Positions 10,872 through 24,398 are shown, counted from the stretch's first letter. The stretch is 64,000 nucleotides of DNA from Candidatus Uhrbacteria bacterium (GCA_943359345.1 CALRHE010000001.1:1995-65994), one strand, 5' to 3'. Program-made: numbers and translations. Notes: generated from the sequence alone by a model not told the origin.

Positions 10872-11555
10872 TTATCCAAGATGATATTTACCGTGCTCGA
10901 CGTCCGACACAATTTTTCCTTGCTGAATCGTAATCACACGACGACGCATAGCGTTAACGATCTCTCGATCATGAGTGACCAATAAGACCGTAGTCCCGAC
11001 ATCATTAATGCGCTTTAGGAGCTCGATAATCTCTCGCGAAGTGATGGCGTCCAGGTTACCCGTTGGCTCATCAGCCAGAATAATCTTAGGCCTATGCACC
11101 AAAGCCCGAGCTATAGCTACACGTTGCTGTTCACCACCTGACAGCTGACGTGGGTAACGATGCATTTTATCTGATAAGCCGACGATCTTCAAAACTTGCG
11201 GGACGACCTCACGAATGCGTGACGTGGCTGCGCCGGCTACCTCAAGCGCAAAAGCTACGTTCTCAAAAGCTGTTTTTTTGGGGAGTAATTTATAATCTTG
11301 AAACACTACCCCAATCTGTCTACGCAAAACCGGGATTTCCGCCCGTCGAATCTTAGAAATGTCCCAGTCCCCCAAATGAATACTCCCCCGGGTTGGGCTT
11401 TCTTCAGCAAATAAAAGCTTGGCGAGCGTGGTCTTACCAGAGCCGCTCGTACCCACAACCGATACAAATTCCCCGGGCCGGATATGAAAACTAACTCCAT
11501 CCAAGGCCTTGGTCTCAGGTTTATAGATTTTTGAGACGTTTTTAAAGGTGATCAC
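10872..11555 (-). CDS. ftsE: Cell-division ATP-binding protein FtsE
   Basis: ABC ATPase: Walker A GTSGSGKTT, signature LSGGEQQRVAIARAL, Walker B ILADEPTGNLD; 227 aa. Confidence 0.9.
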   Translation of the reverse strand: MITFKNVSKIYKPETKALDGVSFHIRPGEFVSVVGTSGSGKTTLAKLLFAEESPTRGSIHLGDWDISKIRRAEIPVLRRQIGVVFQDYKLLPKKTAFENVAFALEVAGAATSRIREVVPQVLKIVGLSDKMHRYPRQLSGGEQQRVAIARALVHRPKIILADEPTGNLDAITSREIIELLKRINDVGTTVLLVTHDREIVNAMRRRVITIQQGKIVSDVEHGKYHLG

Positions 11556-11618
11556 GGATTGAATTATAGCATGGACAGACTAAATCCTGCATGGTATAAA
11601 TTTCCGCGTTATTACCTT

Positions 11619-11693
11619 GCAGGAGTAGTTCAGTGGTAGAACATTTGCTTCCCAAGCAAAGGGTCGCGGGTTCGAATCCCGTCTCCTGCTCCA
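11619..11693 (+). tRNA. tRNA-Gly (anticodon CCC)
   Basis: Cloverleaf read by hand: acceptor GCAGGAG/CTCCTGC, D-arm GTTC-AGTGGTA-GAAC, anticodon stem TTTGC/GCAAA with loop TTCCCAA, T-arm GCGGG-TTCGAAT-CCCGT, encoded CCA. Confidence 0.85.
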
Positions 11694-11696
11694 TGA

Positions 11697-11817
11697 GAAA
11701 ACCCATTTAAACAGCTGACTACGTTGTCGCCGACCTCCGTCGGCCTCACCGTATTGCATATACGCCTCGGCCTTACTCGGTCGGACTCCTAGTAGCCAAC
11801 TGTTTAAATGGGTTTTC
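11697..11817 (+). ncRNA. Candidate structured RNA or palindromic element: about 120-nt rod-like stem-loop closed by an 18-bp perfect helix, between tRNA-Gly and tRNA-Thr
   Basis: GAAAACCCATTTAAACAG (11697-11714) pairs perfectly with CTGTTTAAATGGGTTTTC (11800-11817); interior has nested hairpins (GCCGAC-CTCC-GTCGGC; CCGACC...GGTCGG). Identity unknown. Confidence 0.3.
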
Positions 11818-11942
11818 GCGAACCGATTCATGAGCCCATGGCCGAACGTAGGGAGGCCAAGGCGAACGACGGATAGACGCAAGTGAGGGTGATCCAAGTT
11901 TATCGAGGACACCCGAACGATAGTCTATCTGGTAGTGAGCAT

Positions 11943-12018
11943 GCCATCTTAGCTCAGTTGGTAGAGCAATACTTTCGTAAAGTAGAGGTCCCGGGTTCGA
12001 ATCCCGGAGATGGCTCCA
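11943..12018 (+). tRNA. tRNA-Thr (anticodon CGT)
   Basis: Acceptor GCCATCT/AGATGGC, D-arm GCTC-AGTTGGTA-GAGC, anticodon loop TTCGTAA, T-arm CCGGG-TTCGAAT-CCCGG, encoded CCA. Confidence 0.85.
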
Positions 12019-12050
12019 AAAATACTCCCATACGCGGGAGTATTTTTGTT
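12019..12050. terminator. Rho-independent terminator after tRNA-Thr (usable from either strand)
   Basis: AAAAATACTCCCATACGCGGGAGTATTTTTGTT: 8-bp stem ATACTCCC/GGGAGTAT, loop ATACGC, T-run; A-run on the other side. Confidence 0.8.
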
Positions 12051-12086
12051 ATTCCGCGGCAGCATGAAGCGCTCGCGTTTTAAAGA

Positions 12087-12938
12087 CTACCAAATAAACA
12101 CCCAAGGCTGGTTGTCGGTCATTATCTGACCAACGACTGACCTAAAAGATTTTTTCTTAACTGCAATACCTCGGAAGTGAATGGCGGCTTGCTCCAAAAC
12201 TTCAGACGGGAAATATTCGATCAACGTAACTGACCAATAAGCATCAGACGCGGCCAGAATCTCAGACACTGTACCCACCTCTTCATCAACCAGTTTTACC
12301 GCTGGCTGTAACCAAGAGGCTAGCGTAGCTAGGCTCACGATACCTAAATCACCTCGTGATAAGGCTGAAGGATCTTGAGAAAAATTTTGGGCTACATCCG
12401 CAAACGGCATCCCCTGAGCAACTTTCTTACGCAGTGATTCCATGGCTGTCAGTGCCTGGGCCTGATAAACATCGTTGTCACTGACAGCTGCCTCAGTCCT
12501 CTGCGCTAGTAACAAAGGCTGAAGAATATATTTGCGATAATCTTTTTCTTGCCACTTAGCCAGCTCTAGGCCAGGACCAATGACTTCTAGATCAATCAGC
12601 TGAGCAGCAATTTCCGCCCGCGTCACGTCTACGTCTAGCTCTTCTGCCAGTGCCTCAACGTATAACCTATACACGCTCACGGATACAGCTCGATCAAAGG
12701 CCTCCGAGTTCTTAGTAGCTCCACCAAAGCCTTTCATGCCGTGAGCCAACTCAACCACGCTCCTATACGACAGGCTCTGACCGTTAGCCTGAACTGCCGG
12801 AATCAAAACCAGGCTAGATACAGGTCTAAATATCCCACCCATAGCATGGGTGATAAAGAAAAACTCACAAAAAATCAGATAAGCAACCAAGCTACCCAGC
12901 CCCAAAATGAGCCCCCGTCGCAAACCTAGGGAGGTCAT
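12087..12938 (-). CDS. Membrane-anchored PpiC/parvulin-type peptidyl-prolyl isomerase (PrsA/SurA-like)
   Basis: N-terminal TM helix; parvulin signature FSQDPSALSRGDLGIV in the C-terminal half. Confidence 0.55.
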   Translation of the reverse strand: MTSLGLRRGLILGLGSLVAYLIFCEFFFITHAMGGIFRPVSSLVLIPAVQANGQSLSYRSVVELAHGMKGFGGATKNSEAFDRAVSVSVYRLYVEALAEELDVDVTRAEIAAQLIDLEVIGPGLELAKWQEKDYRKYILQPLLLAQRTEAAVSDNDVYQAQALTAMESLRKKVAQGMPFADVAQNFSQDPSALSRGDLGIVSLATLASWLQPAVKLVDEEVGTVSEILAASDAYWSVTLIEYFPSEVLEQAAIHFRGIAVKKKSFRSVVGQIMTDNQPWVFIW

Positions 12939-23935: not shown

Positions 23936-24160
23936 TTAGACCGCGATAACTTCGCGCACTTCAGGAATCGCTTGGCAAAGAGCACTTTCGACCCCTTGTT
24001 TCAGGGTAATATTCGATAAAGCACAACCATCACAAGTACCTGTCAAACGAACCTTTACCACCCCGCGTTCTGGTTCAATATCCACAAGCTCAATCCCCCC
24101 GGCATGCAACCGAAGTGCCACTCTAACCTGATCTAAGACCTTTTCCACGGCCTCGCGCAT
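23936..24160 (-). CDS. NifU/Nfu-like Fe-S cluster scaffold domain protein
   Basis: 74 aa; HAGGIELVDIEPERGVVKVRLTGTCDGCALS matches the NifU C-terminal domain with its CxxC pair. Confidence 0.75.
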   Translation of the reverse strand: MREAVEKVLDQVRVALRLHAGGIELVDIEPERGVVKVRLTGTCDGCALSNITLKQGVESALCQAIPEVREVIAV

Positions 24161-24215
24161 ACTAATCGAGTATACGCCTAATTTTTCCTTAAGAAAAGGT
24201 GGTATTTGCCAAGCT

Positions 24216-24244
24216 TGACGATCATAAGCTTTTCGGCTATTCTA
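24216..24244 (+). promoter_or_regulatory. Putative sigma-70-type promoter for rpmA
   Basis: TTGACG, then 17 nt, then a TAT-rich hexamer; about 155 nt upstream of the rpmA ATG, preceding a structured leader. Confidence 0.35.
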
Positions 24245-24271
24245 GTGCCAAAACTAGATCATTCTCGTCAA

Positions 24272-24398
24272 GAAAACGATTTTATTCGTGACGAGTTTGG
24301 TCGAGCGGGATGTTTTGGCCGAGGCGTAAGTAAACCTACGGTGAGGTCAAAACAGGGGCCCGCGAGGCCGAAATCGGCCGAATAAAATCGTTTTCTAT
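24272..24398 (+). promoter_or_regulatory. Structured 5' leader of rpmA (candidate r-protein autoregulatory element)
   Basis: GAAAACGATTTTATTCG (24272-24288) is perfectly complementary to CGAATAAAATCGTTTTC (24379-24395), which ends 4 nt before the ATG; additional internal GGCCGAGGCG / CGCGAGGCC / GCCGAAATCGGC helices. Confidence 0.45.

Follow-up and report, generated by a model that had tools for sequence, protein, structure and literature searches.

The window analysed here, that is, the whole stretch of 64,000 nucleotides from Candidatus Uhrbacteria bacterium to which all coordinates refer unless another locus is named, contains two tRNA genes on the plus strand, tRNA-Gly(CCC) and tRNA-Thr(CGT), surrounded by housekeeping genes on the minus strand: ftsE, ftsX, a SpoU methylase gene, tgt and clp on one side, and a PPIase-like gene, divIC and mur ligase genes on the other. 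The window is part of a metagenome contig (ENA ERZ27280223, k141_2173273) derived from a chromosome of the Patescibacteria (CPR), and the nearest named FtsE proteins come from Uhrbacteria and "Patescibacteria group" genomes. According to ARAGORN and Rfam the tRNA genes are separated by a spacer of 249 nt, in line with the gap of about 250 nt given in the initial annotation. Elsewhere in the window, the segment 57660-61500 has a G+C content of 0.58-0.62, against about 0.50 in the rest, with long ORFs overlapping on both strands and only a weak metal-binding motif in Pfam; it may represent a foreign or surface-protein region. The features on which this report is based are the following:

11572-11601, plus strand: putative promoter of the tRNA-Gly/tRNA-Thr unit, read by eye from the sequence
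11619-11693, plus strand: tRNA-Gly(CCC), with encoded CCA (ARAGORN; Rfam tRNA model, 74.4 bits)
11695-11819, minus strand: rod 1, canonical member of a hairpin family (inverted repeat; covariance model R1, built from four copies with a hand-drawn structure)
11820-11854, plus strand: linker, with a small GGCC...GGCC hairpin at about 11834-11863 in the fold
11855-11942, plus strand: hairpin of a second family, of the D2 type (homologues, compensatory changes, fold)
11943-12018, plus strand: tRNA-Thr(CGT) (ARAGORN and Rfam)
12017-12048, strand not assigned: terminator-like hairpin, a perfect 13 bp between an A-run and a T-run (inverted-repeat search)
24215-24243, plus strand: promoter-like sequence reading into rod 2, TTGACG (24215-24220), a 17-nt spacer and TATTCT (24238-24243), read by eye
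24270-24397, plus strand: rod 2 (nhmmer E = 1e-6; R1 53.7 bits on the plus strand, 25.8 bits on the minus strand)

The putative promoter of the tRNA unit consists of TGGACA (11572-11577), a 17-nt spacer and TATAAA (11595-11600), with a TG at 11592-11593, and the relative L092 has TGATATAAAT at the equivalent position. The consensus scan missed it because its second hexamer ends in A. Behind tRNA-Thr, the hairpin at 12017-12048 is a probable bidirectional terminator, to judge from its sequence, and is absent from the list produced by the terminator scan. Given a promoter before tRNA-Gly and a terminator-like hairpin after tRNA-Thr, the spacer would therefore lie inside a two-tRNA transcription unit and, to the extent that these sequences predict it, the proposed co-transcription with the tRNAs holds. 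On the minus strand, at 11553-11568, ftsE has a TATAAT seven bases upstream of its GTG start, a position suggestive of a leaderless mRNA, a mode of expression that may be widespread in this lineage; this reading of ftsE fits the hairpins described below that end right at start codons.

Fold and composition of the spacer

The initial annotation had described the spacer as structured, and the fold agrees: the RNA reaches -100.5 kcal/mol on the plus strand (z = -5.6 against shuffled sequence) and -108.3 kcal/mol on the minus strand (z = -6.9), and none of 200 shuffles folds as well. The 18-nt inverted repeat reported at 11697-11714 / 11800-11817 is perfectly complementary, its arms extend to 39 nt at 79% complementarity, and the 18-mer occurs at these two sites of the window only, with 0.04 occurrences expected by chance. 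It does close a rod, as had been claimed, but this rod does not enclose two separate hairpins; it forms one long irregular hairpin with three internal loops, within which the inverted-repeat search also finds a local alternative hairpin. Rod 1 begins 1 nt past the 3' end of tRNA-Gly and is inverted relative to the tRNAs, its outer stem pairing 11697-11722 with 11792-11817 and its core lying at 11744-11772.

The second domain of the spacer (11855-11942) folds by itself with z = -4.0 and has no match in the R1 search of the window. The nested stems GATAGAC/GTCTATC and GGGTG/CACCC, already noted by eye, are present both in the repeat search and in the fold, where they build a hairpin at about 11870-11931 with the loops GCAAGUGAGG and GAACGAUA; this hairpin is preceded by GGCCAAGGCGAACGACG and followed by UGGUAGUGAGCAU, and the module ends at tRNA-Thr +1. 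Homologues were found in three loci (L141, L119 and L093; nhmmer E = 1e-24 to 2e-5), with compensatory changes in both stems: GATAGAC/GTCTATC vs TCGTGAC/GTCACGA in the first, and GGGTG/CACCC vs GGACGA/TCGTCC vs GGCC/GGCC in the second. What stays constant is the loops, G(C)AAGUGAGG and GAACGA, and the tail GGUA(G/A)(U/G)GAGC. In L141 an inverted rod and the D2 domain occur together between another tRNA and tRNA-Pro, and in L119 and L093 the D2 domain is inverted and abuts the 3' end of tRNA-Leu(CAG). Its polarity is thus that of the rods described below: sense before tRNA-Thr and tRNA-Pro, antisense after tRNA-Leu. As judged from these homologues, the second domain is a separate conserved hairpin family, placed as a leader before tRNA-Thr.

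The three CGAACG words listed as direct repeats do exist but do not stand as a repeat feature, only the third being part of a conserved motif (GAACGA). The second varies among homologues (GAACG, GAGCG, GACCG), the first lies in a stretch absent from the closest homologue, and from this comparison the repeats carry no signal of their own. The same homologue has a 74-nt insertion at the position of the linker. Read by eye and without statistical support, the linker's GGCC-GAA-CGTA-GGGA-GGCC..GACGGA resembles the core of the rod family minus its loop, and the linker hairpin may be what is left of a rod core that decayed. In a distant Patescibacteria relative (L007, 687-705), AGTGAGCGTAT stands directly before tRNA-Thr(CGT) and resembles the AGUGAGCAU tail of the D2 family.

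Comparison with relatives agrees with the palindromic insertion that had been suggested as an alternative in the initial annotation. The two tRNA genes abut, at 0 nt, in L092 (FtsE 89% identical) and are 13 nt apart in L006 (FtsE 67% identical), so the spacer is to be regarded as an insertion. The same gap holds one rod in L106 and two rods in opposite orientations in L096, and it measures 271 nt, again with two rods in opposite orientations, in L089 and L091 (FtsE 89% identical). Other relatives at 88-92% FtsE identity lack the tRNAs upstream of ftsE, a region that differs in nearly every relative at this level of identity; on these comparisons the tRNA locus upstream of ftsE is a hot spot of change. 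Between the window (11619-12018) and L089 (2554-2975), from genomes with 89% identity in FtsE, the tRNA-Gly...tRNA-Thr cassette as a whole has the opposite orientation with respect to ftsE.

The rod family

The window contains exactly two R1 matches, rods 1 and 2, and about 60 copies were found across the fetched loci. The family hairpin is irregular, about 125 nt long, with a near-invariant apical core, common to all copies as CCTCACCGTA-loop-TACGCCTCGGCC, and three conserved internal loops that are purine-rich on one strand: GAGG/GUGA, GAGUAA/GACGGAG and UAGGAG/CGACAAC. Along this purine-loop strand, the 5' half runs through the outer stem, UAGGAG, a stem, GAGUAA, GGCC, GAGG, CGUA and the loop, and the 3' half through UACG, GUGA, GGCC, GACGGAG, a stem, CGACAACGUAG and the outer stem. 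The apical loop differs among copies in sequence and length, and the stems differ in every subfamily while the internal loops remain constant. Three A·T pairs of the outer stem, 12-18 nt from the end of the element (columns 12, 13 and 15), are highly conserved.

The initial annotation had proposed looking for covariation among relatives, and it was found. When 26 distinct sequences are aligned under the guidance of the model, pairing is kept in 91% of the cells, and both partners have changed in 34 of the 41 pairs (257 cells in all). No shuffle out of 500 came up to these values, a significance that is overstated because the alignment was fitted to the R1 structure and the sequences share a phylogeny; with the structure slid by 1-3 columns, pairing drops to 33-42% of the cells. 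The model-guided alignment was used in place of a MAFFT alignment of 17 copies, which misaligned the outer stems.

The two strands of the rods are not equivalent. The purine-loop strand has 51 G·U pairs vs 9 A·C pairs, its remaining mismatches being purine-purine, and it is the better-folding strand in 58 of 60 elements. The strand-biased G·U pairs, the loops and the better folding together indicate that a single-stranded form of one strand is under selection. This strand is the minus strand of the window for rod 1 and the plus strand, sense with rpmA, for rod 2.

Rod 1 shows the features by which the family was recognised: the core GGCCGAGGCGUA-loop-UACGGUGAGG, the loops GAGUAA/GACGGAG and UAGGAG/CGACAAC, and a hairpin of about 125 nt. 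It scores 138 bits on the minus strand and 58 bits on the plus strand with R1, of which it is one of the four source sequences; on the minus strand every loop equals the family consensus, with 2 G·U and no A·C pairs. The strand carrying the family's wobble pairs and purine-rich loops is therefore antisense to the tRNAs, and the tRNA precursor would carry the pyrimidine-loop strand, in which the wobble pairs become A·C mismatches. It follows that the case for a role as RNA is weaker for rod 1 than for the leader copies.

Rod 2 was found with an nhmmer profile built from three rods. It forms a 128-nt hairpin in the 5' leader of rpmA, whose ATG (24399) lies one base past its end; the ORF was identified as Ribosomal_L27 (rpmA), and a Shine-Dalgarno sequence is absent. 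Rods 1 and 2 share the core, not the arms, and their stems are very different. A NifU-like gene at 23936-24160 is divergent from rod 2 and rpmA.

Placement, copies and carriers

All tRNA-adjacent copies obey one rule: the 3' end of the purine-loop strand faces the tRNA, from 0-9 nt away. There are 22 copies at tRNA 5' ends, in sense orientation and before ten tRNA species, and seven at 3' ends, inverted, or roughly 20 in all once near-duplicates are removed. The seven comprise rod 1 of the window and copies in L089, L090/L109, L096, L125 and L153. The order tRNA, inverted rod, sense rod, tRNA is found in L089, L096 and L125; L164 has the same rod pair, with no adjacent tRNA-Gly called, and in L153 two rods flank one tRNA-His, one on either side.

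Protein-coding genes follow the same polarity. Leader copies end one base (rpmA), 4 nt (dnaE) or 6 nt (nrdB) before the ATG, leaving no room for a Shine-Dalgarno sequence, and inverted copies begin where rseP and several Nitrospira ORFs have their stop codon; in the Nitrospira ORFs the element's own last triplet is the TAG. Judging from the neighbouring genes, whose ORF-based analysis is noisy in GC-rich contigs, most copies would be 5' leaders of tRNAs or mRNAs, and a minority lie inverted behind a tRNA or a stop codon. Upstream of 12 of the 13 leader copies inspected, at a distance of 15-60 nt, a promoter-like -35/-10 or extended -10 reads into the purine-loop strand, as identified by eye and without a chance control; these sequences are mostly conserved between orthologous loci.

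Hairpins are also retained, with compensatory changes, at orthologous loci, for example those of tRNA-His (L120 vs L153) and tRNA-Ile (L093 vs L119), and the copies of one genome have strongly diverged stems. Both observations together suggest locus-by-locus maintenance rather than a recent burst in the CPR lineage.

One rod pair, A-B, lies between tRNA-Gly and tRNA-Thr(CGT) in L089, between tRNA-Tyr and tRNA-Thr(CGT) in L090, and between tRNA-Tyr and tRNA-Thr(GGT) in L109 (around 2550-2980 and 1670-2090), with the breakpoint exactly at the tRNA CCA end. These swaps reflect either recombination through the repeat or an assembly chimera, and L090, in which tRNA-Tyr replaces tRNA-Gly, may be such a chimera across the A-B pair rather than a real recombinant. 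Several independent assemblies (L002, L005, L169 and L170) break off within a rod, as repeated or palindromic DNA would lead one to expect, and rods may fragment CPR genome bins near tRNA genes.

In one metagenome scan the exact core was found in 73 loci, of at least three sequence types. Hairpins of the CPR type measure about 125 nt. Those of the Nitrospira type measure about 128 nt and are flanked by proteins identical or near-identical to those of Ca. Nitrospira nitrosa and other Nitrospira, and those of the GC-rich type measure about 172 nt and come in numerous near-identical copies and in tandem arrays. The carriers include Patescibacteria, Nitrospira and a third, GC-rich lineage, in which the near-identical and tandem copies look like a mobile-element burst. 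Tandem copies of the GC-rich type with a 180-nt period occur in L105 (111-322), in L101, L123 and L133 and in other loci, and are followed by a conserved repeat of about 70 nt (CTCCGTTATCAAACGCTCGCGACCTTGCGCCCGCTCGCTGC...) that resembles the start of another element. A canonical copy in L134 (9864-10404) is located in the 23S-5S rRNA spacer, inverted, about 9 nt past the 23S 3' end. Some group II introns insert after stem-loops, and in L159 a group II intron (Rfam group-II-D1D4-6, 94.8 bits, 585-827) starts about 75 nt downstream of a family hairpin at 400-509.

An Rfam 15 covariance search of the spacer, proposed in the initial annotation, matched only the tRNAs, both at the gathering threshold and at E <= 10, with no match to RNase P either, and the same search of 15 homologous loci, a Nitrospira copy and rod 2 returned only tRNAs and unrelated features. 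The literature, searched by keyword (non-coding RNAs of CPR/Patescibacteria, REP/RAYT in Nitrospira, palindromes beside tRNA genes) and in full text for the core sequence, yielded no description of the family. The rod family is absent from Rfam 15 and was not found in the literature searched.

Interpretation and comparison with known systems

The reading we favour, at a probability of roughly one half, is that these hairpins are modules of two families, gained and lost over time, which would act in cis as leader or spacer elements, being co-transcribed with the tRNAs and cut out during maturation. Two of them would have been inserted between tRNA-Gly and tRNA-Thr, once abutting: rod 1, of the trailer kind, behind tRNA-Gly, and the D2 module, of the leader kind, before tRNA-Thr. 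Both modules and both tRNAs would belong to one precursor, transcribed from the promoter before tRNA-Gly, in which the modules would fold as hairpins, to be released by the RNase P cut at tRNA-Thr +1 and by the trimming of the tRNA-Gly 3' end. The conserved loops would be a binding or processing signal read at the RNA level by a protein or nuclease, and the candidate roles in cis are those of a processing, stability or folding insulator. Copies would spread by duplication or by some unspecified mobilisation, with gain and loss on a short evolutionary time scale. The exact placement of inverted copies behind gene ends is not explained by RNA-level function alone; the selfish-element reading given below would account for the inverted copies.

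A bolder version, which we hold to be unlikely, would make the modules a cross-phylum class of structured RNA that marks gene boundaries, with a leader at the mature 5' end (ending at tRNA +1 or, in mRNAs without a Shine-Dalgarno sequence, 1-6 nt ahead of the start codon) and its complement as a trailer at the mature 3' end or stop codon. The loops might then be read by a dedicated protein or nuclease to make mature or leaderless 5' ends, or leader-trailer pairing might couple tRNA, ribosomal-protein and replication genes.

The rods might instead be selfish, non-autonomous elements of the REPIN/MITE type, moved via single-stranded DNA by a strand-specific HUH/Y1 or RAYT-like enzyme encoded elsewhere, with the core and loops as recognition site and the adjacency to genes as tolerated insertion in a compact genome. 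We consider this possible, if somewhat doubtful. A single-stranded intermediate predicts the G·T wobble asymmetry even in copies antisense to their neighbour, and presence and absence do vary among close relatives, with several copies per genome in both orientations; yet the apex is conserved and the termini are variable, the reverse of MITEs and REPINs, and neither a target-site duplication nor a constant flanking tetranucleotide was seen in comparisons between non-isogenic genomes, the rod junctions set against the empty sites of L092 and L006 (likewise not isogenic) having no visible direct repeat. The near-identical copies and tandem arrays of the GC-rich lineage, the A-B pair between different tRNA pairs (L089, L090, L109) and the frequent assembly breaks inside rods also speak for such an element; the diverged stems within one genome and the orthologues retained with compensatory changes point to selection at each locus and speak against it, as does the position of 12 of the 13 examined leader copies between a promoter-like sequence and a gene. 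Similarly, the cross-phylum distribution fits horizontal spread, but the core is absent from viral contigs in two scans, blastn found no match for the spacer in phage and plasmid collections nor for a Nitrospira copy among plasmids, and the examined parts of the window hold no transposase gene, with no Y1 transposase or RAYT among the roughly 20 ORFs scanned. The RNA-module and selfish-element readings are not mutually exclusive, REP and ERIC sequences being equally ambiguous.

The initial annotation had envisaged a small RNA (6S-like, SRP-like or lineage-specific) co-transcribed and processed with the tRNAs. Such a stand-alone RNA, cut from the tRNA precursor, would act in trans; in one variant the excised spacer would be complementary to loops of the leader copies and pair with these as a sponge or antisense RNA, like the leuZ 3'ETS of E. 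coli. The stable fold inside a tRNA transcription unit would suit such an RNA, RNase P would define its 3' end, and along stretches of 12 and 10 nt the plus-strand RNA of rod 1 could pair without mismatch with the rod 2 core in the rpmA leader. That it constitutes such a gene is nevertheless improbable: the spacer has no 6S or SRP signal in Rfam even at E <= 10, the rod belongs to a multi-copy family present in both orientations and in several phyla, and its absence from close relatives means that it is not an essential housekeeping RNA. Very improbable, in turn, is a signal at the DNA level, in which the hairpin or cruciform would bind a protein or the A/T-rich outer stem would hold outward promoter elements (ATTnA / TnAAT). 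The three highly conserved A·T pairs and a polarity set relative to the gene body, not to the direction of transcription, would agree with it; against these stand covarying stems and an excess of G·U that imply a folded single strand, good promoters already upstream of the leader copies, and a negative promoter scan of the spacer.

CPR genomes are very small and tightly packed, so hairpins of 125 nt of non-coding sequence at many loci need explaining. The family offers unusually clear covariation, three nearly invariant internal loops, and a core common to CPR, a GC-rich lineage and Nitrospira, an important nitrifier. Its strict polarity towards gene ends has not been described for REP, ERIC or MITE sequences, and neither has its placement from promoter to tRNA +1 or to a start codon without a Shine-Dalgarno sequence. 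If the loops are an RNA signal, tRNAs and leaderless mRNAs would share a maturation step in these uncultivated bacteria; if they are a transposition signal, they would define a new strand-specific mobile element with cross-phylum reach. Under either reading, rods would account for the breaks in assembly and the rearrangements that these metagenome-assembled genomes show near tRNA genes.

Several known classes were set against the rods and rejected. 6S RNA is a single-copy rod of about 180 nt with a large central bubble, and the rod is of 125 nt, multi-copy, in both orientations and absent from close relatives. For SRP RNA (4.5S; domain IV with a GNAR tetraloop; RF00169), besides the lack of a match at E <= 10, the apical loop is variable. 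The boxes of integron attC sites (RYYYAAC...GTTRRRY) are unlike the ends of rod 1, CATTTAAAC ... GTTTAAATG, which are unrelated in other copies; the conserved part is moreover central and both orientations occur. An intrinsic terminator would have a G+C-rich stem and a U-run, in place of which we find a 125-nt hairpin with an A/T-rich base and a tRNA following in the unit, and the terminator scan of 11300-12300 found none. Group II intron domain V, K-turn, sarcin-ricin loop, attC, retron msr/msd, bridge RNA and omega RNA were dismissed for mismatches of sequence or architecture. A promoter in the outer stem (TTTAAAT, or GCGACA as -35) is unconvincing in spacing and conservation, in addition to the negative scan, and replication-strand bias is at odds with rods 1 and 2, whose folded strands are opposite DNA strands while the GC skew of the region is uniform.

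REP/REPIN sequences and their RAYT transposases are found in Pseudomonas and Enterobacteria. The rods resemble them as dispersed, non-coding, multi-copy palindromes between genes, about 100 nt in size, that fold into long hairpins, evolve by compensatory changes, have a strand-specific single-stranded form and occur as inverted pairs of units; they differ in the apex and three internal loops conserved across phyla, the variable termini and the fixed polarity towards gene ends. The mark of a REP is a short G+C-rich hairpin with a guide tetranucleotide, GTAG or GTGG, placed 0-2 nt 5' of its foot (PMC6006769); the rods instead form a single long hairpin whose outer stems are A/T-rich. The MITEs of bacteria, among them Correia/NEMIS and RUP, resemble the rods as short, non-autonomous hairpin insertions and, as proposed for the rods, are co-transcribed with their neighbours and may affect processing (PMC10969869). 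They have conserved terminal inverted repeats, target-site duplications and similar copies within a genome (PMC10969869), whereas among the rods the terminal stem is particular to each copy, the termini are variable, the copies of one genome diverge from each other, and the comparisons of non-isogenic genomes showed no duplication.

Three further systems were compared. The ERIC/IRU sequences of enterobacteria and vibrios are imperfect palindromes of about 125 nt, shared across genera, located in transcribed intergenic regions and variably present among strains, and we know of no transposase for them. The rods are like them in all these points, the sequences being unrelated, and we know of no abutment of ERICs to tRNA 5' ends or start codons, nor of a polarity rule. 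The 3' external transcribed spacer of glyW-cysT-leuZ in E. coli is an sRNA sponge; it is cut out of a tRNA precursor, as the spacer of the window would be, with a possible action in trans, but it is short and neither a repeat nor a long hairpin, and a similar role in trans for the window spacer is speculation. Finally, the processing stalks and RNase III hairpins found in rRNA operons and in the early transcripts of phage T7 are, like the rods, long and irregular hairpins or duplexes; they bracket stable RNAs in their polycistronic precursors and are removed during maturation. Much as they do, a leader rod and an inverted trailer rod can flank a single tRNA, as in L153; the stalks, however, are locus-specific sequences, and the rods are a repeat family.
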